A stretch of DNA of 10,757 nucleotides. Origin: a virus. Lineage: Duplodnaviria; Heunggongvirae; Uroviricota; Caudoviricetes. The DNA lies in the IMG/VR virus record IMGVR_UViG_2778261515_000020, positions 1-10,757 of that record. One strand, 5' to 3'. The position numbers and the translations under genes are program-made. This document shows positions 1,592-10,757 of this stretch, piece after piece. Positions within the stretch are counted from its first letter, which is position 1; every line of letters starts with the position of its first letter. A model generated the notes under the pieces. That model did no database searches, had not been told where the DNA came from, and worked only from the letters and a program-made list of their open reading frames with translations.

Positions 1592-2191
1592 ATGCAAATT
1601 GGCTATATTCGCGTATCAACAAATGACCAGAACACGGATTTGCAACGCAATGCGCTCAATAGCGCAGGATGTGAACTGATTTTTGAAGATAAAATCAGCG
1701 GAACAAAATCAGCCAGACCGGGATTGAAAAAACTGCTCAGAACGTTATCAGCGGGGGATACGCTCGTTGTCTGGAAACTGGACAGGCTGGGCAGAAGCAT
1801 GAAACACCTGATCACACTGATTGAGGAATTGCGGAAAAAAGGTGTCAATTTTCGTAGTCTGACGGATTCAATTGATACCAGTACCCCAATGGGACGATTT
1901 TTCTTCCACGTGATGGGCGCCCTGGCTGAAATGGAACGTGAATTAATTGTAGAGCGTACACTGGCCGGACTGGCAGCAGCCCGCGCACAGGGGCGAATTG
2001 GTGGGCGTCGCCCGAAACTGACAAAAGAGCAACATGAGCAAATAGCGAGGCTGATTAAAAACGGCCACGACAGAAAACAGCTGGCCATAATTTACGACAT
2101 CGGTATATCGACGATTTATCGTTATCACCCTGTAGGTGACACGCAACCCGGAGGAATAATTGAGAATACTCAGGAAACAAAAAACCGCTAA
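1592..2191 (+). CDS. Serine-recombinase DNA invertase, Hin/Gin/Cin/Pin family
   Basis: MQIGYIRVSTNDQNTDLQRNAL...DTLVVWKLDRLGRSMKHL...SLTDSIDTSTPMGRFFFHVMGALAEMERELIVERTLAGLAAARAQGRIGGRRPKLT closely resembles the Hin and Pin sequences as I recall them, including the catalytic Ser in IRVST and a C-terminal HTH. The start was chosen at the ATG at 1592 (AGGA 8 nt upstream). The track ORF from 1397 is an upstream artefact. Confidence 0.9.
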   Translation: MQIGYIRVSTNDQNTDLQRNALNSAGCELIFEDKISGTKSARPGLKKLLRTLSAGDTLVVWKLDRLGRSMKHLITLIEELRKKGVNFRSLTDSIDTSTPMGRFFFHVMGALAEMERELIVERTLAGLAAARAQGRIGGRRPKLTKEQHEQIARLIKNGHDRKQLAIIYDIGISTIYRYHPVGDTQPGGIIENTQETKNR

Positions 2192-2211
2192 TCTGAACAT
2201 TAGCGGTTTTT
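2181..2211. terminator. Bidirectional intrinsic terminator between the convergent invertase and U genes
   Basis: Perfect 12-bp stem AAAACCGCTAAT / ATTAGCGGTTTT around a 6-nt loop (CTGAAC), with A-tract on one side and T-tract on the other. The stem overlaps the invertase stop codon (2189-2191) and lies 9 nt from the U stop. Confidence 0.6.
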
Positions 2212-2219
2212 ACGTTAAA

Positions 2220-2708
2220 TCAGAACACCCCTTTAACTGAGCTGACCACATTGTTAAGGGATGATGTCACCTTATCTTTAAGACCGGACAGCATATCACT
2301 GAACGATGAGGATTGCAGGCGCTCCCGCAAATCCTCATCACAGCGTTCAAGGGTCAGGGAAAACTCTATCTTTTTCGCTTTCCCGTAGCGATCCAGTTCA
2401 GAGCGGGTCGTGCTCGTTTCAGTCAGAACATACATGCCGTAAATCTGCCCGACGCCATCAATCAGAGGCCACGGGCGTCCCGCATACGCCTGCGTGGCCA
2501 GCAGCGACAGCGACACTTCGCCGCCTGTAATCTCAGGATAAAGCACGCCGGAAAGAACGATGCGATCATCACCTGCACCGATATACTGCCAGCTTGCTGA
2601 ACGGTTAACGCGCTCGTTTTTCACATGTCGCCAGCTTTTGTTTTGCTGTAACTGCTGATGCGGTAATGTGCGCAACTCAAAAACAAACATGCCGTAGATC
2701 ATCATCAT
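2220..2708 (-). CDS. U: P2 gpU-like tail protein
   Basis: 162 aa beginning MMMIYGMFVFELRTLPHQQLQ...WPLIDGVGQIYGMYV, resembling P2 gpU as I recall it. AAGGAG lies 7 nt upstream of the ATG and overlaps the T stop. It sits immediately downstream of T, as in P2. Confidence 0.85.
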   Translation of the reverse strand: MMMIYGMFVFELRTLPHQQLQQNKSWRHVKNERVNRSASWQYIGAGDDRIVLSGVLYPEITGGEVSLSLLATQAYAGRPWPLIDGVGQIYGMYVLTETSTTRSELDRYGKAKKIEFSLTLERCDEDLRERLQSSSFSDMLSGLKDKVTSSLNNVVSSVKGVF

Positions 2709-2719
2709 GGCACGACTCC

Positions 2720-5557
2720 TTACTCTTTATCATAAAAGCTACCACGCCCGGCACGGGTACGCCGCTCCAGTTCTGCCCTGACCATTTCGCCGACCAGTTT
2801 CGCCAGTTCGCGGGGATTCTGCGTAACAACGTTATGCAGATGGACATGAATTTCACCACCAAATTCGGGTGCCGCAGTCTCCCGGCTGCGGGAAGATGCG
2901 GAAACGGGCGCAACTGGCGCACGTGCGGCCTCCACGACCGGACGGGAGCTTGCTGCAACAACAGGGGGCAACACCGGAGATAACGGAGCCGGGACCACGG
3001 GTGTGATGTTGATTGCGGAAGCAGGCTTACTGACCTGCGCAATCTTCCGCTCCTGCCACTCCCCGCGAACAGCAAGCGCACGGGGCAGGTTCTTAAAGAC
3101 AATATCACCGGGGCCGATACGCTTTTTCGTCTCATCAACCAGCTTGCCTGTGTTATCTGCAATTTTGCTGAGCCTGCGCAGCGTGCCAGTGTTGTTGTCC
3201 GTGAGCGGCTTGTTGTCTTTAGGCTTATCGCCTCCGGTCCCTGTTTCCGCAGATTTCGGCGGATTGATTTTTGCCAGGTCCCCCTGAAGCAAAGCAACCT
3301 TGTCCTGAAGAATGGCCGCACGCTGCGCGTCTTCGATTTTCTTTCTCGCCCTTTCCGCTTCATCTGGAAGGACGCCAAGTTTTTCCAGTATCCATGCCAG
3401 CGTATCCAGCAGCATTTTTGCAGGCGTCAGGACAAGCTGTAACGCACCGCCAAGAACGTTGCCGAACACCTCGCCAGCACTGGTGCATTTATCCAGCGTT
3501 TCCTTACTGGATTCCATCGGTGACAGCAGCGATGTAAACCAGTTAAAGACCTGAATCACGCCATCACGAACTAGTTCGAAAACAGGGCCAAACCGTTCAA
3601 AGGTTTCGCGTAACGGGGCCAGCCGCTCCATAATCCCGCTGAACACCCCGGCAAAAAATGCCCTGATTGGGTCCCAGTATTTCCAGATGAGAGCGGCAGC
3701 TCCGGCAAGCGCAGCCACGATAAGACCGACCGGGCTGAACAACGCCCCGATAGCGCCTCCAAGTAAAGAGACGGAACCCGCCACCATTCCCCACAGCGCT
3801 GGCAGGACCCTGACAGCATTCATTGATCCGGTCAGGAGGGAAAAACCAAGACGCAGTTTTGCCAGCGGGCCAGCAAGCACCCCAAGAGCCAGTGACAACG
3901 AGCCAACCGTTGCAGTCATTGCCAGCAGCGCACCGCCTGCAATCAGTAGCTGGCGCGTCAGTGCCGGATGGGCCTGCGCCAGCTCCGTCACCTTTGAGAC
4001 CACCCGAGTGAGCCACTGCGTGACAGAGCGCAGCGGACCGTCAATCAGATCCGCAATGCGGATACGCAGCCCCTCCCATGCACTGCCGAGTGATCTCAGG
4101 TCGCCATCAAGGTTATTGGCCATAACCTTTGCCGTGCGTTCAGCCTCACCGCGTGCGCCTTCAAGTTCTTTTCTCAGCTTGGGCAGAGAACCGTCACCTG
4201 CCGCATCAACGAGGGCCATAAATGACGTGAAGGCCTCTTCTCCGGCTATGTCCTTAAAGAACGATACCCGGTCAACTTCCCCGTATTTGCGGGTGGCTTT
4301 ATAAAGGTCGGCCAGCACATCCTCCATCGGGCGCATTTTGCCGTTCGCATCAGAGACAGCCACACCAAGCTCTTTCAGCGCCTCTGCTGCCGCCTTTGGC
4401 GGTGATGCCAGACGAGCAAGGCTGGCACGCATTGCCGTCCCGGCATCACTCCCTCTGATACCCATATTCGCCAGCACGCCCGCCATCGCTGCGGCCTGCT
4501 CCAGCGATATTCCCAGCTTACCCGCCACCGGACCTGCATATTTCATGGTTTCGCCCAGCGCGCGAAGGTCGGTGTTAGTACGGGTAAACGCCGCAGTAAG
4601 TGTGTCGCCGACCCGGTCCATCTGGTCAGCAGAGAGACCGAACTGCGTCAGGATATTTGAGCCAATATCCGCCGTCTCGCCAAGGTCCATACCGCCAGCC
4701 GTTGCCATGCTCAGCACGCCGGGAAGCGCAGCCTGAATGGCTTCTGGTGTGAAGCCAGCCATAGCAAGAAATGCCTGCCCACTGGCGGCATCACTCGCAG
4801 TAAACTGCGTTTCAGAGCCGAGCTTTAGCGCCTGCTCACGCAGCGCCTTAAACTGCGGGCTGTTCTGGTCAATTCGCGTCAGCGCCTGCACACGGGACAT
4901 CTCTTTCCCGAATCCGATAGCGGGCTGCAAAAAACGCCCGGCAGCATAGCCGCCAGCCGCTGCCGCACCAGTTGCCAGCGCACCACCCGTTTTCAGTTTT
5001 CCCGCTGTTTCCTGCGCGCGTGAATACTGCTCACGCGCCCGCGTTACACGCGCAAGCGCCTGTCGTTCGCGTTCAAGCTGGTTGTTGTACTGTTCGGTGC
5101 GTCTGATGGCCTGCTGGATGGTGTTATCGCTGCCTGTCAGGGAAATACCGTGGCGTTTAAGCTCTCCGCCAAGCTCCCGCATTTTCTGAATTTCCCGCGT
5201 GCGCGATTCATTCAGGCGTTCAAGCCGGGTGCTTAACTGCTGCATCAGCCTTTGTTGTTTTTCGCTGAGCACAGTACCCGTGCGTTGTAACTGATGAAGG
5301 GCGTTAAGCTGGCGTCGTGCTTTCACGATGCCAGCATCCGCTTTACTGACAGCATCGCGGGCGCGCTCAAATGAACGCGCCTGACGCTCGAGATTTTTGA
5401 TTGCCCCCTGCGTTTGCTGGATGGAGTCACCAAGCCGCCCCATCAGGCGGCGGGCGTTTTCGGCTGGCCGGGTCAGCCTGTCAACAGCACTGAAGGCGAC
5501 CCGAATGTCAAGAGTCTTCATTGTCTGCATTCCCACTGCGAAGTGCCGCCCGCTCAC
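2720..5557 (-). CDS. T: Tail tape measure protein (P2 gpT-like)
   Basis: ORF of about 945 aa with coiled-coil-like Q/R/E/A-rich N-terminal half, a central hydrophobic glycine/alanine-rich segment, and a position between E/E' and U. The start is uncertain: the longest ORF begins with GTG at 5557, and in-frame ATGs at 5530 and 5521 are alternatives. Confidence 0.8.
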   Translation of the reverse strand: MSGRHFAVGMQTMKTLDIRVAFSAVDRLTRPAENARRLMGRLGDSIQQTQGAIKNLERQARSFERARDAVSKADAGIVKARRQLNALHQLQRTGTVLSEKQQRLMQQLSTRLERLNESRTREIQKMRELGGELKRHGISLTGSDNTIQQAIRRTEQYNNQLERERQALARVTRAREQYSRAQETAGKLKTGGALATGAAAAGGYAAGRFLQPAIGFGKEMSRVQALTRIDQNSPQFKALREQALKLGSETQFTASDAASGQAFLAMAGFTPEAIQAALPGVLSMATAGGMDLGETADIGSNILTQFGLSADQMDRVGDTLTAAFTRTNTDLRALGETMKYAGPVAGKLGISLEQAAAMAGVLANMGIRGSDAGTAMRASLARLASPPKAAAEALKELGVAVSDANGKMRPMEDVLADLYKATRKYGEVDRVSFFKDIAGEEAFTSFMALVDAAGDGSLPKLRKELEGARGEAERTAKVMANNLDGDLRSLGSAWEGLRIRIADLIDGPLRSVTQWLTRVVSKVTELAQAHPALTRQLLIAGGALLAMTATVGSLSLALGVLAGPLAKLRLGFSLLTGSMNAVRVLPALWGMVAGSVSLLGGAIGALFSPVGLIVAALAGAAALIWKYWDPIRAFFAGVFSGIMERLAPLRETFERFGPVFELVRDGVIQVFNWFTSLLSPMESSKETLDKCTSAGEVFGNVLGGALQLVLTPAKMLLDTLAWILEKLGVLPDEAERARKKIEDAQRAAILQDKVALLQGDLAKINPPKSAETGTGGDKPKDNKPLTDNNTGTLRRLSKIADNTGKLVDETKKRIGPGDIVFKNLPRALAVRGEWQERKIAQVSKPASAINITPVVPAPLSPVLPPVVAASSRPVVEAARAPVAPVSASSRSRETAAPEFGGEIHVHLHNVVTQNPRELAKLVGEMVRAELERRTRAGRGSFYDKE

Positions 5558-6094: not shown

Positions 6095-6607
6095 TCAGCC
6101 GAGCCCGAGCGCGGAGCGGATGCGGTCGGGTACAATGTCCTTGCCATCCTTCCGGTAGATGTGGTTCACCAGGTCAATTTCCCACACCGGACGATCGTTA
6201 ATACTCAGCTTGTAGTAGGTGTTTTTGACAGCGTAAGTGTGTGACGTGGCTTCGCCCTGTTTGGCCTCCCCCATATCAATTTCCGTCACACGCCCGCGCA
6301 TCTCGATTTCATACAGGTCGCTTTCTGCATCGGTGTAGTATTCACCCGCAAAACGCAGCAGCGTGCCGTCCATTGTTCCGCCATATTTAAGGAACAGCGC
6401 ACGAACGGCGCCACCCATGACAAAACTCGCATCAAGCGCGGAATCGTCCAGGCCGAGGTCGATACTCACCGCTCCCAGCATGCCACCACCACGATAGCTG
6501 TCGGTTTTACGCGTCAGTTTAGGCGGGGTGACAGACGTCACCTTACCCACTTCATTTTCACCATCCACAAACAGCGTAAAAAAACGAAGATGTTTTGGTA
6601 CGGCCAT
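6095..6607 (-). CDS. FII: Tail tube protein (P2 FII-like)
   Basis: 170 aa at the right size and position for P2 FII. Its start overlaps the FI stop (TAATG). Confidence 0.88.
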   Translation of the reverse strand: MAVPKHLRFFTLFVDGENEVGKVTSVTPPKLTRKTDSYRGGGMLGAVSIDLGLDDSALDASFVMGGAVRALFLKYGGTMDGTLLRFAGEYYTDAESDLYEIEMRGRVTEIDMGEAKQGEATSHTYAVKNTYYKLSINDRPVWEIDLVNHIYRKDGKDIVPDRIRSALGLG

Positions 6608-7791
6608 TAAGCACCTCCAAGCACTGCAAATGCAGGACCAAAGAACTCATCAGTGAACGCCTGGTAAAGCTCCATATCTTCCAGCGGAGGAACGGGCGTA
6701 TATTTATAGCGAATACGCACGCGCCCCTGTCGTAATTCTGTGGTGCTGTTATCCACGATGTCATACCAGCACGATGCGCCAATCAGTTTCCCGGCAGTAA
6801 CCAGCGAATCCAGTTTTGCCCTGATGGCACTGATAACATCCTTCACGTTCGCGGGCGTCAGTGGACTGTCGATGGTTTCAAACTGCGCTTCCGCAATTGA
6901 ATCAGCCAGCACCTGTGCGGTTCGGGTATACACCTCAAAGATGTAGGCATTCGTTTCCGGTGTGCGGTTGCCCCAGAAGCGGAACCCGTTGCGGCGAATG
7001 ATGGTTGTGATTTCTTTGTTGTTGAGGCTGTTGGCATCGCTGTCAGCAGCCTGCAACGACCAGAACACATGCCTGGACATCCCCAGCACATTTTTGACCG
7101 GAACGTTGGACAGCGATTTGTGCCAGCCCTGCTCATGGTCAATGTACGCACGAAGGCCGCACGCATAGGCTGGCGCGGGGAAAACCTCATTCTCGCCACT
7201 TTTCGGGTTGTAAGCGATGAAGTCCGGCCACAGGAGCATCAGCTCGCGTTCGTTGAATTTTTCACGGTATGCAATGGCTTCAGCCATCGTGTTACAGCCA
7301 TGACAGGAGGCATACACAAACGCGCGCAGTTTACCTGCAATCACGCACAGGGATTTTGTCACCGCCTCCGTGTCCAGCCCCGGCGCGGCCAGAATACGCG
7401 GACGGTATCCGATGCTTTCATCCTGCTCTGCAACAAGCAGCGCATACATCCCCGTATAGCTGCCGTCGGATTCAGAACCACCAATAACCAGTTGATCCTG
7501 TGTTTTTCCGTCTTCTTCTTTGTGTTCAGCCACGCGAACGACGATCACCTTTGTGCTCACCTGGTCTGCAATGGGTTTCAGCGCACGGTACAGCGTCCCC
7601 GTTGTCCCGCATTTTCCCAGCACGTCATTGACGCGGGTCACTAATGCAGGCTTGTTCAGCGGGAACAGCTTCGCGTCCGCATCGTCCGCCGTTGCCACGA
7701 TACCGATAACGCTGGAATCAACGTCGTTAATTGCTGTTACCAGGTCGGTACTTTCCGTAACGCGGGCGCCATGAAAACGAGTTTCACTCAT
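6607..7791 (-). CDS. FI: Contractile tail sheath protein (P2 FI-like)
   Basis: 394 aa with motifs I recall from P2 FI (LSNV.V...FW.LQ..., TLIRR.GFRFWGNRT, YTRTAQV.AD, YTPVPPLE). AAGGGG RBS upstream of the ATG at 7791. Confidence 0.9.
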   Translation of the reverse strand: MSETRFHGARVTESTDLVTAINDVDSSVIGIVATADDADAKLFPLNKPALVTRVNDVLGKCGTTGTLYRALKPIADQVSTKVIVVRVAEHKEEDGKTQDQLVIGGSESDGSYTGMYALLVAEQDESIGYRPRILAAPGLDTEAVTKSLCVIAGKLRAFVYASCHGCNTMAEAIAYREKFNERELMLLWPDFIAYNPKSGENEVFPAPAYACGLRAYIDHEQGWHKSLSNVPVKNVLGMSRHVFWSLQAADSDANSLNNKEITTIIRRNGFRFWGNRTPETNAYIFEVYTRTAQVLADSIAEAQFETIDSPLTPANVKDVISAIRAKLDSLVTAGKLIGASCWYDIVDNSTTELRQGRVRIRYKYTPVPPLEDMELYQAFTDEFFGPAFAVLGGA

Positions 7792-7948
7792 AGCTTCAGC
7801 CCCTTGTATCCGTTAAATGATTCGGCAACAATCATCACCCACCACGCGCGTAATCTCACCCCTGCGACGTTCTCCCGCCACGGCGACAACAAAAAGCAGT
7901 AACCCCCTCCGCACGCACATGCGACCATGCCGCACAGGGAGGGAACAG

Positions 7949-9049
7949 ATGACCGACACCACCATGCAATTGCTCAGTCAGGGCACAGACCCCGTGAAAA
8001 TGCCGGATTTTGATATTCTCGCGGAGGGTAAAACGCTGTCAGGCGTGGCAGAGCGCCTGATGAGCCTGTCACTGACCGACAACCGGGGATTTGAGGCGGA
8101 CCAGCTCACCATCACGCTGGATGATGCAGATGGTCAGTTGCAGCTACCGCCACGGGGCGCGCGCCTGACGGTTCTCATTGGCTGGAAAGGAGAACCGCTG
8201 ACAGAAAAAGGCACTTACATTGTTGATGAAATCGCTCACGAAGGACCGCCGGACAGGCTGACTGTTTCAGCCAGAAGCGCAGATTTTCGGGATGAATTTA
8301 ACGTTAAACGTGAGGTGTCCTGGCATGATGTGACCGTTGAGCGTGTGGTATCCGCCATCGCTCATCGGTACGGTCTGAAACCGCAAATCAGCGAAATGCT
8401 GATGGATATCGAAATCGACCACGCCGACCAGACCGAAGAAAGCGACATGTCCTTTCTTACGCGCATGGCGGAAATGCTGGGCGCAATCACCACGGTAAAA
8501 AGCGGTAATCTGTTATTCATTATGCCAGGCGGTGGCGTGAACGCACAGGGCCAGCCGTTGCCATCGTTCGCCATCACGCGCAGCAGTGGCGATCGCCATC
8601 AGTTCCGCATTGCTGACCGCGAAGCGTATACGGGGGTACGCGCTTACTGGCTTGATCTTAATTACGGGAAAAAGAAAAAAGTCAGCGTGAAACGCCGTAA
8701 ACCGAAAATGGAGAAAAGCAGTAGCCGTGAAGGCGACTATATGGAAGGTGCGGAAGGCAACGTGTTTGTGTTACGCAAGACTTATCAGAACGAACAGGCA
8801 GCAAGACGCGCTGCGGCGGCAAAGTGGCAGCAGCTACAACGCGGAGCCGCATCATTCTCCATCACACTGGCACGTGGACGCGCAGAACTCTACCCCGAAA
8901 TGCATGGCACGGTAACAGGATTTAAAAGCGAGATTGATAATCAGGACTGGATTATTGCAAAAGCCGAGCACACCATTGATAACAGCGGCTTTACCACGCA
9001 GCTTGAGCTTGAGGCAAAAATCCCGGAATGGATAGCGGAAACAGAGTGA
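7949..9049 (+). CDS. D: Late control / tail protein gpD-like
   Basis: Long ORF with a lysine-rich patch (GKKKKVSVKRRKPK) and overall gpD-like character. The start was chosen at the ATG at 7949 (GGGAGGG 5 nt upstream), not the alternative-start extension to 7817 in the track. Confidence 0.85.
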   Translation: MTDTTMQLLSQGTDPVKMPDFDILAEGKTLSGVAERLMSLSLTDNRGFEADQLTITLDDADGQLQLPPRGARLTVLIGWKGEPLTEKGTYIVDEIAHEGPPDRLTVSARSADFRDEFNVKREVSWHDVTVERVVSAIAHRYGLKPQISEMLMDIEIDHADQTEESDMSFLTRMAEMLGAITTVKSGNLLFIMPGGGVNAQGQPLPSFAITRSSGDRHQFRIADREAYTGVRAYWLDLNYGKKKKVSVKRRKPKMEKSSSREGDYMEGAEGNVFVLRKTYQNEQAARRAAAAKWQQLQRGAASFSITLARGRAELYPEMHGTVTGFKSEIDNQDWIIAKAEHTIDNSGFTTQLELEAKIPEWIAETE

Positions 9050-9091
9050 GCAACTTAGAATAGCGGCAGCACCACGTTAAGGGAGGTCGCT

Positions 9092-9352
9092 ATGTTCCGT
9101 TGTCCGCTTTGTGGCGCATCTGCCCGTATCCGCACCAGTCGTCCAGAAAATGATTCAAACACCGTGCGGCAAAAGTATTACCAGTGTAACAATCTGGAAT
9201 GCGGCGTATGCTTCTCAACACTGGAAGCTTTCCATAAATTCACATCAAAACACGCCTCCGGCGTTCACTCTTCAGAAGGTATCCCGTGGCATGATCTGCC
9301 AGCTTCACACAGGGGAAACAATCAGATGAGTTTGCCTTTACCTCAGAATTAA
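9092..9352 (+). CDS. ogr: Ogr/Delta-family zinc-finger late transcription activator
   Basis: MFRCPLCGASARIRTSR...YYQCNNLECGVCF is a Cys4 arrangement (C-x2-C ... C-x4-C) with clear N-terminal similarity to P2 Ogr as I recall it (MFHCPLC...ARTSR...YHQCQNVNC). Strong GGGAGG RBS. Located directly after D, as in P2. Confidence 0.85.
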   Translation: MFRCPLCGASARIRTSRPENDSNTVRQKYYQCNNLECGVCFSTLEAFHKFTSKHASGVHSSEGIPWHDLPASHRGNNQMSLPLPQN

Positions 9353-9750
9353 CAGACAGAATTGCCGGAGTAACAAAAAAAGCGATACACCCATTTACCC
9401 GGCAGTACCACTCCCCCGCCCCATAGCTGGCAGTGAGGCGGGATGTTTTGCCTACCCGCCAGCAGGCACCATCGTGGAAATATCCAACATTGAAGGACGC
9501 CCGGATAAGCCTGTTATCAGGCAAATCTTACCCATCGGTCATAACCTGCCTGATGTAAAGCCCGGCGAACAATTGCAACAACAGCGTGCAGAAGTGTTTC
9601 AGCATGTCACGACTGACGGAAGCTGGCGCAGAAAAACCGACCAGCAAATCCAAGAAGAAAAGCGCGTAAAACGATCACTGCTGATGTGGCGTTGCTTTAT
9701 ACAAGCTGCTATTTGCGATATGCTGAACACATCAACCTGTGGAGTGCATT

Positions 9751-10377
9751 ATGAAACAAAAATCAAAGTCTGCTGCCATTGCTGCTATTGCTACAGCTCT
9801 GACAGCATCACTGGCTCCGGTGCCAGCTAAAAGCACGATACTACCAACAACAGTTATTGAATCCGTGACACACGCCAGAGTGGTTTCAATGCTTACATTT
9901 GAGCATCATGATGGTCAGGTGTTTCTGCCTCTTGAAGAAGCTATTGAATATATCAACGGGCTGAATGACAACATGCGTGCCGCGCTCAATGCAGTCATTG
10001 AAGAACGACAGAACAGAGGCAAGGGAGCTCTGTTTGCTGACAAAACCGCAAAAATCATAAAAATATGCGAAGAGTCACTTAAGCAGCACAGCCGTGTTAA
10101 AGAGGCTGTCAAAATTGTAATGGATCCGGATAACCTGGCAAAAATGTATCCGGATAGCATGGAGCAAAGAATCGCCTATCGCAATAAACTGGTTCGTTTT
10201 GGTCGGGCAATTGCGCAGGGAGAGTTTATCGCTCGTGATGCCATCAACGCCATCAAACGAAGCACCGCACCAGACAAAACGACCAGCCTAGGCAATACGC
10301 TGTCTGACGGAAATGTGAAAGCAATGATTATTGCCGAGCATAAAAACATGGGACTCCCGGCACCGGAGTTTTCCTGA
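9751..10377 (+). CDS. Hypothetical protein (208 aa) with a hydrophobic N-terminal segment; first gene of a two-gene cargo operon and candidate partner of the downstream YafO-like protein
   Basis: Start chosen at the ATG at 9751 (GGAG 6 nt upstream); the track begins at an upstream GTG. The N-terminus MKQKSKSAAIAAIATALTASLAPVPA looks like a signal peptide or membrane anchor. I recognise no family. Its stop overlaps the next start (TGATG). Codon usage looks AT-richer than the tail genes. Confidence 0.6.
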   Translation: MKQKSKSAAIAAIATALTASLAPVPAKSTILPTTVIESVTHARVVSMLTFEHHDGQVFLPLEEAIEYINGLNDNMRAALNAVIEERQNRGKGALFADKTAKIIKICEESLKQHSRVKEAVKIVMDPDNLAKMYPDSMEQRIAYRNKLVRFGRAIAQGEFIARDAINAIKRSTAPDKTTSLGNTLSDGNVKAMIIAEHKNMGLPAPEFS

Positions 10378-10757
10378 TGGCAAGCAAAGTAAGCATTCAT
10401 AAAGATGTTGAATACCAGGACATTGCAAAAGTTTACGGAAAGGCTCTGGAAAACTGGTTAAATACCGGTGTTCTCCCTGACAGATTCGGCAATGAAGGGC
10501 AGTGGGAAGATAACGCAAGATTATGTGGTTCGTTTGTATATAAATTACACATAAGACTACCGTCAGAACCACCATGGAAGAAAAGCAAAGCCCAAATAGA
10601 CAGAACTTCAAATATCTATCTGGTTTATACAAGGCACTGGATGGATTATGACAATATACAAATCATCAGCATCATGGCCCCAGATGCTCACGAAAAAGCC
10701 AAAACTTCTTTCATGGCTGAGCTGGAAAGACGGGCAGAAGAATTCCAGAACTCATAA
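10377..10757 (+). CDS. YafO-family toxin-like protein (putative ribosome-dependent mRNA interferase)
   Basis: 126 aa. It shares with E. coli YafO, as I recall its sequence, the motifs GVLPDRFG (YafO GVLPDIFG), HIRL (HIHL), DRTSNIYLVYTRH (RTNDEAHLVYCQG), IISIMAPDAHEKA (LIAILKPEPHKLA) and MAELER (MAEAFR). The assignment is from memory, not from a database search. Confidence 0.5.
   Translation: MASKVSIHKDVEYQDIAKVYGKALENWLNTGVLPDRFGNEGQWEDNARLCGSFVYKLHIRLPSEPPWKKSKAQIDRTSNIYLVYTRHWMDYDNIQIISIMAPDAHEKAKTSFMAELERRAEEFQNS

Follow-up and report, generated by a model that had tools for sequence, protein, structure and literature searches.

The closest described counterpart of the locus studied here is the late promoter system of phage P2. 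In the P2 record (NC_001895), a single activator site is annotated for the two promoters pP and pO, whose start sites (3016 and 3127) lie 111 bp apart, and the TGT-N12-CCA dyad at this site is centered 55.5 bp from each start. The site of a further late promoter, pF, is likewise TGT-N12-CCA, so that the shared pP/pO site and the pF site each match five of the six bases of the consensus TGT-N12-ACA, while the pV site yields no N12 match with up to one mismatch. The tail genes of P2 follow one another on one strand in the order FI FII E T U D ogr, and P2 late transcription is blocked in hosts with an rpoA109-type mutation. A literature search yielded neither usable data on Ogr sites at base level nor usable studies of promoters in P88 or Xuanwuvirus; no reporter, EMSA, footprinting or 5’-end data were found for P88-type phages, and the papers found on P88 and phiSM mention neither promoters nor Ogr. 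P88 itself is inducible and forms plaques, with a burst of about 65 (PMC5285337).

The stretch of DNA that we analyzed (10,757 nt, hereafter the window) comes from an E. coli prophage of the P88-like type (Xuanwuvirus, Peduoviridae), of which it forms the right end. Positions 6500-9400 are about 95% identical to phage P88, and from about position 1520 to the end of the window every base is the same as in the prophage of E. coli UMNK88. As compared with P2, the block from FI to U is inverted and the D-ogr segment is not, resulting in the following arrangement:

2180-2211, minus strand: intrinsic terminator just after U, with a 13-bp stem and a T tract (from a terminator scan), which ends the leftward operon
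2220-2708, minus strand: U (GpU), by Pfam
2720-5557, minus strand: T, tape measure, by Pfam
6095-6607, minus strand: FII, by Pfam
6607-7791, minus strand: FI, tail sheath gene (Pfam Phage_sheath_1 and related domains), first gene of the leftward late operon
7949-9049, plus strand: D, late control/baseplate hub gene (Pfam Phage_GPD), running rightward from the gap
9056-9061, plus strand: TAGAAT, probable -10 element of an ogr promoter, in the 42-bp D-ogr gap (9050-9091) and 30 nt upstream of the ogr ATG
9092-9352, plus strand: ogr-like gene encoding an 86-aa protein with an Ogr/Delta zinc finger (Pfam Ogr_Delta, E = 5e-14)

The leftward late operon FI-FII-E/E’-T-U runs down to position 2220, and the terminator behind it folds with a z score of -3.6, a stability reached by none of 200 shuffled sequences. 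This terminator overlaps the 3’ end of a convergent invertase gene (ending at 2191) and is flanked by A and T runs on both sides; it may terminate in both directions. The Ogr_Delta match scores 52 bits (cut-off, 26.3), the protein shows the CX2C...CX4C pattern, and identity to Ogr of the P2 group is about 41% over the first 53 residues.

Several features flank this locus. Positions 1-1042 are 99.7% identical to the UMNK88 prophage in reverse orientation, and 1043-1511 have no match there. Two tail-collar-domain ORFs (588-1034 and 1045-1563) lie on the minus strand in this part, next to a serine recombinase/DNA invertase gene at 1592-2191 on the plus strand (inside ORF 1397-2191; Pfam Resolvase and HTH_7). 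Together, the segment 1-1042 and the adjacent invertase have the look of a Gin/Cin-type invertible segment for tail fibres, present here in the other orientation or with other cassettes. At the opposite end, a YafO-family type II toxin gene (10377-10757, plus strand; Pfam YafO_toxin, E = 1e-27) lies at the prophage end, next to serS in UMNK88, and extends to the last base of the window, and it is abutted by a 212-aa ORF without a Pfam match (9739-10377, plus strand), the two possibly forming a toxin-antitoxin cargo module. An Rfam scan of the window gave no match. The prophage copy in UMNK88 looks defective, with an IS3 transposase interrupting the virion morphogenesis gene S and a frameshifted tail-fibre gene; its D is called by PGAP from an internal start (263 aa), and the full 366-aa frame is open.

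The inverted layout is widespread. Among 80 loci with a D homologue in species-representative genomes, FI and D were divergent in 59, and the layout occurs in at least five genera of Peduoviridae (Xuanwuvirus, Reginaelenavirus, Novemvirus, Senquatrovirus and Reipivirus). Sorted by identity of D, every locus at 61% or above is divergent, and the 21 at 53% or below all show the P2 order U-D-ogr. The gap between the two genes measures 140-162 bp in all 59 divergent loci. A search of 5426 complete E. coli genomes with the FI-D region (window positions 7742-7998) gave matches at 95%-99% identity in 1370, among them O157:H7 and EC958 (ST131), with up to three copies in some; on this count, the prophage family is carried by about a quarter of the genomes.

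An earlier note on this DNA had read FI and D as starting back to back 157 bp apart, and this reading holds: the FI start codon is the complement of 7789-7791, the D ATG is at 7949 and the gap spans 7792-7948. It is also correct that, unlike in P2, transcription from the FI promoter cannot include D, as D lies on the strand opposite FI-FII-E-T-U and so needs a promoter of its own. The start of D defines what counts as intergenic here. An in-frame ATG at 7817 opens a longer frame in the ORF list (7817-9049, 410 aa), and if D began there the gap would be mostly coding, with its conserved blocks reflecting protein constraint. We consider this hardly credible: the start at 7949 is preceded by a strong Shine-Dalgarno sequence (GGGAGGG, 7937-7943), agrees with the P88 record, in which D starts at the matching position 33333, and places M1 in register with the D proteins of three other genera and of P2, and conservation in the gap falls into discrete blocks separated by free spacers and indels rather than following codons. 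Also annotated in the P88 record is a “hypothetical protein” of 43 aa; its coordinates (33155-33286) overlap both the start of FI and the dyad described below, and it is probably spurious.

From the absence of TGT-N12-ACA in this gap, the earlier note had gone on to suggest that D expression and late activation may differ from P2. The observation itself stands: both exact matches in the window (5256 and 9554) lie elsewhere, and the only TGT in the gap (7805) has its nearest ACA at 7828, giving TGT-N20-ACA. The absence is uninformative, however, because an exact search misses P2’s own annotated activator sites. The P2 genome contains five exact matches, none at an annotated late promoter or activator site, the P88 genome contains two, none in a late gap, and the two in the window compare with 2.7 expected. 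With matches at chance level in all three and none at late promoters, the exact pattern was dropped as a criterion. Two further candidates were set aside. The TGT-N20-ACA element (7805-7830) overlaps the ribosome-binding region of FI and the predicted FI start, and its triplets are not conserved in an unanchored MAFFT alignment of 21 lineages (hereafter A3), so we regard it as coincidental. The string CGCGCGTAATCT at 7847-7858 resembles the -10 region of pP in P88, but is not conserved across genera.

When up to one mismatch was allowed, the gap contained a sole match, TCT-N12-ACA at 7871. Such a match is not significant by itself, with 0.7 expected in a gap of this size, and the case therefore rests on comparison with relatives. 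The elements that this comparison points to are:

7871-7888, no strand: putative Ogr-type activator site, TCT-N12-ACA (gTTCTcccgccacggcgACAACAAAAAGC; TCTcccgccacggcgACA), dyad centre 7879.5, proposed for both promoters
7886-7897, plus strand: right half-site, extended toward D by a conserved A-rich stretch (together ACAACAAAAAGC); the P/O site has the same extension toward O
7836-7831, minus strand: GATGAT, predicted -10 of the FI (F-operon) late promoter; A43, T44 and T47 are invariant in A3
7854-7859, minus strand: GTGAGA, predicted weak -35 for FI, assigned from its 17-bp spacing to the -10 hexamer
7900-7905, plus strand: TAACCC, predicted -35 position of the D promoter, a poor match
7920-7928, plus strand: TGcGACCAT, predicted extended -10 of the D late promoter; relatives have tG.aA..aT at +49..+57

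The site at 7871-7888 matches five of the six consensus bases, and lies in the gap in the context acgTTCTcccgccacggcgACAACAAAAAGC. At the aligned position, the consensus TGT-N12-ACA is perfect in two phages, 3LV2017 of Klebsiella and SEN4 of Salmonella, and Enterobacter phage T5282H has TCT-N12-ACA, as the window does; this comparison spans four genera with the divergent layout. A census of 60 gaps (the 59 species-level divergent loci and the window) found T[G/C]T-N12-ACA at the dyad position in 55, as TGT-N12-ACA in 35 and as TCT-N12-ACA in 20; the remaining five have CCT-N12-ACA (three gaps) or TCT-N12-AGA (two gaps, both in Providencia prophages). The N12 spacer is essentially unconserved across the 60. 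Among the variants, the two Providencia prophages have a fully switched palindrome, GTTCTC-N10-GAGAAC, and the CCT half-site occurs in Erwinia psidii and Symbiopectobacterium.

In A3, the invariant positions of the dyad are T85, A98 and A100 (T7873, A7886 and A7888). Outside it, the gap has five invariant positions: A7831, T7832 and T7835 in the FI -10, C7857 in the -35, and C7910 (C122), which sits in a G+C-rich run upstream of the D -10. T7871, C7887, A7889 and T7920/G7921 are nearly invariant. An anchored alignment of 33 representatives (less than 85% mutual identity), fixed on the dyad and without gaps, gave the consensus ACAAcaaa for the A-rich extension; the extension recurs at three P/O sites, those of P88 (ACAACAAAAGC), T5282H and 3LV2017. 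This extension may reflect extended recognition, or a contact resembling that of an UP element. The 33 representatives are related by descent and their conservation is partly inherited; the randomised spacer, though, argues for selection on the triplets.

We then scored whole sequences with a weight matrix of 26 columns, built from the FI/D sites of 32 relatives with the window and its near-identical relatives left out. This relatives-only search did turn up a matching activator site in the gap, ranking 7868-7893 first in the window with 20.6 bits, as compared with 13.0 bits for the next match. The maximum scores of 200 shuffled windows had a median of 9.6 bits, a 95th percentile of 15.3 and a largest value of 22.3. 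Across the whole P88 genome, the two best matches were the FI/D gap and the P/O gap, and because the P/O gap had contributed nothing to the matrix, the match there is independent. The same two gaps gave the two best genome-wide matches in 3LV2017, T5282H, Kp4847-1 and CP052639, and SEN4 showed an additional match between S and V, the place of P2’s pV. When 477,748 positions of seven phage genomes were scanned, a score of at least 16 bits was reached at 17, every one of them a late-gap dyad of the FI/D, P/O or S/V type. On P2, the matrix of this clade placed pP/pO only fifth (8.6 bits) and found P2’s own sites poorly; judging from these scores, the activator sites of the clade and of P2 have diverged, and cross-activation cannot be assumed. 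The P88-like phages, 3LV2017, T5282H, Kp4847-1 and CP052639 each have only two strong dyads, with none ahead of V or R. In such genomes R-S-V-W-J-I-H-G are probably read through from pO, and all late genes appear to be run from two shared sites.

On both sides of the dyad, conserved blocks occur at fixed distances. In the anchored alignment, the columns with the most information outside the dyad are -40, -39 and -36 (A, T and T), which read nAnnAT on the minus strand and correspond to the predicted FI -10. The -35 of this promoter was placed by a conserved tCAcGc at -15..-10 (minus-strand gTGAnn), in which C69 is invariant in A3. On the D side, T132 and G133 of the extended -10 are nearly invariant in A3; in the -35 region, relatives conserve gTT at +28..+30 (e.g., TTGTCT) and T112 is nearly invariant in A3. 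Assuming the usual 7 nt from -10 to start, which fits the -10s inferred for P2 pO and pF, the FI promoter is predicted to start near 7824, with a 33-nt leader to the FI ATG, and the D promoter near 7935, with a leader of about 14 nt that contains GGGAGGG. The activator centre would then lie at -55.5 of both, with 111 bp between the predicted starts at 7824 (minus strand) and 7935 (plus strand) and the dyad centre halfway. By hand count, the P/O gap of P88 has the same arrangement, with TAATCT and CATCAT hexamers flanking a dyad at 14216-14233. All these -35 and -10 assignments are predictions from conservation and spacing.

As sigma-70 promoters, both candidates are weak. Their -35 hexamers match the consensus at four (GTGAGA) and two (TAACCC) of six positions, a poor -35 such as that of D being expected of an activator-dependent promoter. 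A sigma-70 consensus scan found no match of at least 9/12 in the gap 7792-7948, in agreement with activator dependence, and its one plus-strand match (8912-8941) lies inside D.

Taken together, it is likely, as judged from comparative sequence data, that one shared Ogr-type site drives divergent late promoters of FI and D in the two-way design known from P2. What the sequences show is a conserved motif that recurs at the P/O gap and stands at a constant distance from conserved -10-like elements; we infer where transcription starts, that Ogr binds and that the promoters depend on it. In the proposed mechanism, the first supply of the Ogr homologue (9092-9352) would come from a promoter of its own between D and ogr. 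This protein would then bind the dyad TCT-N12-ACA (7871-7888), midway between the two weak outward-facing sigma-70 promoters and at about -55 of both, and recruit RNA polymerase, as P2 Ogr does at pP/pO. The leftward promoter (GTGAGA/GATGAT, start near 7824) would transcribe FI-FII-E/E’-T-U until the terminator at 2211-2180, and the rightward one (extended -10 TGcGACCAT, start near 7935) would transcribe D and probably continue into ogr. The gap of P88 differs from that of the window by a single base, outside the motif, and P88 is productive, which implies that late genes are expressed with this site. Contrary to the divergence from P2 proposed earlier, the gap thus holds a near-consensus Ogr-type site, at a P2-like distance from the predicted starts; most likely, to the extent that these alignments can tell, late activation works as in P2 and only the operon wiring of D differs.

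The site could, alternatively, be a decayed or very weak relic, with FI and D transcribed from activator-independent sigma-70 promoters or under another regulator, and late control truly unlike that of P2. The departure of the left half-site from TGT is compatible with such decay, and basal activity could come from either the TGn extended -10 of D or the FI promoter, which matches the sigma-70 consensus at 8 of 12 positions (GTGAGA-N17-GATGAT). We nevertheless find this unlikely, because the half-site triplets have been kept over many genera and the spacer has not, TCT recurs at the P/O site of the same phages, an intact ogr has been kept next to D in all 59 divergent loci, and the promoter scan had no match in the gap. 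Some activator-independent activity of the D promoter, through its extended -10, could exist alongside activation at a shared site.

The region between D and ogr bears on a second alternative, in which the dyad serves FI only, and D and ogr are transcribed from a different promoter that is early or constitutive; D would then not be strictly late. In its favor, only 42 bp separate D from ogr, a gene whose expression has to precede that of the late genes, and the predicted leader of D, at about 14 nt, is very short. However, in 29 of 30 lineages the D-ogr gap, otherwise dissimilar in sequence, has a match of at least 5/6 to TATAAT at 30-38 nt upstream of ogr, so that ogr has a conserved -10-like element of its own and D need not be early; in addition, the D-side -10 and its TG stand at a fixed distance from the dyad, mirroring the FI side and P2 pO. 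Restriction of the site to FI is accordingly a reading to which we give even less weight than to a relic, and we retain the shared site as the preferred one. Of 58 D-ogr gaps that were measured, 56 are 36-70 bp long and two hold an insertion of about 1.4 kb, and in several relatives the ogr -10 hexamer overlaps the D stop codon (TAG-AAT, TAA-AAT). Most likely, ogr keeps its own promoter. It may in addition receive late read-through from D, by analogy with the P2 record, in which the terminator after ogr is annotated for both the ogr transcript and the F operon; a search after ogr in the window found no convincing intrinsic terminator. The ogr gene of P88 (34476-34733) is unannotated in both the GenBank and the RefSeq records, and the ogr region of SEN4 (4113-4232) carries a small wrong-strand CDS with the note “late control protein ogr”.

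The base by which the window departs from the consensus is shared within its regulon. P88, the near-identical UMNK88 prophage, T5282H and Kp4847-1 have TCT at both the P/O and the FI/D sites, and phages with TGT at FI/D have TGT also at their other late sites. Since the same variant is found at the P/O sites of the same phages, TCT is not a lesion of one site, and on this comparison the half-site is probably not a defect. Counted by lineage, three (P88-like, T5282H and Kp4847-1) have TCT at both late sites and three others have TGT at all. Whether this reflects a lineage-specific shift in Ogr recognition rather than tolerated sloppiness is doubtful, and we advance such a shift only tentatively. 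When closely related Ogr proteins that share the motif E-C-S-x-[ST]-F are compared, residue x (two after the fourth zinc cysteine) is R or E in phages with TCT and I or L in those with TGT. As a simple residue tracking TGT versus TCT, this was rejected, as it holds in one subgroup only and is broken by the Ogr of the window, which has Val there. A structure search for the Ogr/Delta family found no homologous solved structure.

The overall result is reassuring rather than surprising, in that late gene control in these prophages looks ordinary; the possible shift in half-site specificity is the only less ordinary lead, and, if true, would offer a natural co-variation series to help read the DNA-recognition code of Ogr/Delta. 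The positions of the predicted late promoters can aid annotation of P88-type phages, the reading of induction transcriptomes and phage engineering. A word of caution also follows for motif searches, as a literal regular-expression search for the published consensus fails even on the reference phage P2.

Compared with the shared pP/pO site of P2, the site in the window is similarly a partial dyad, one base off TGT-N12-ACA, midway between two outward-facing promoters with weak -35s, -10s that fit nAnnAT and, going by the starts predicted here, the 55.5/111 bp geometry, in a genome that also encodes an ogr-family gene. It differs in lying between FI and D rather than P and O, in having its deviating base in the left half (TCT), where the P2 site deviates in the right (CCA), and in the conserved A-rich extension on one side; its starts are predicted, whereas those of P2 are annotated in the record. 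The resemblance to P2 pF, the promoter of the FI-FII-E-T-U-D operon, lies in the transcription of the same tail genes from FI, an Ogr-type site at about -55 to -57 and a leader of 25-33 nt. Unlike pF, which is one-directional with D as the last gene, the window has D split off and placed on the opposite face of the same site. For ogr, P2 has an annotated promoter at the same place as the one predicted here. A likeness is also seen to candidate sites at other loci of the same regulon, the P/O gaps of Xuanwuvirus (P88-like), Novemvirus, Reipivirus, Reginaelenavirus and Senquatrovirus, which share the extended motif [T/G]T[G/C]T-N12-ACAAC(A)AAA (GTTCT-N12-ACAACAAAAGC in P88 and the UMNK88 prophage); they also agree with FI/D in half-site variant, genome by genome, and in their distance to the -10s on either side. 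After inversion of the FI-U block, the clade would have retained late control of the P2 type, with the two-way single-site design already present at P/O employed a second time between FI and D.
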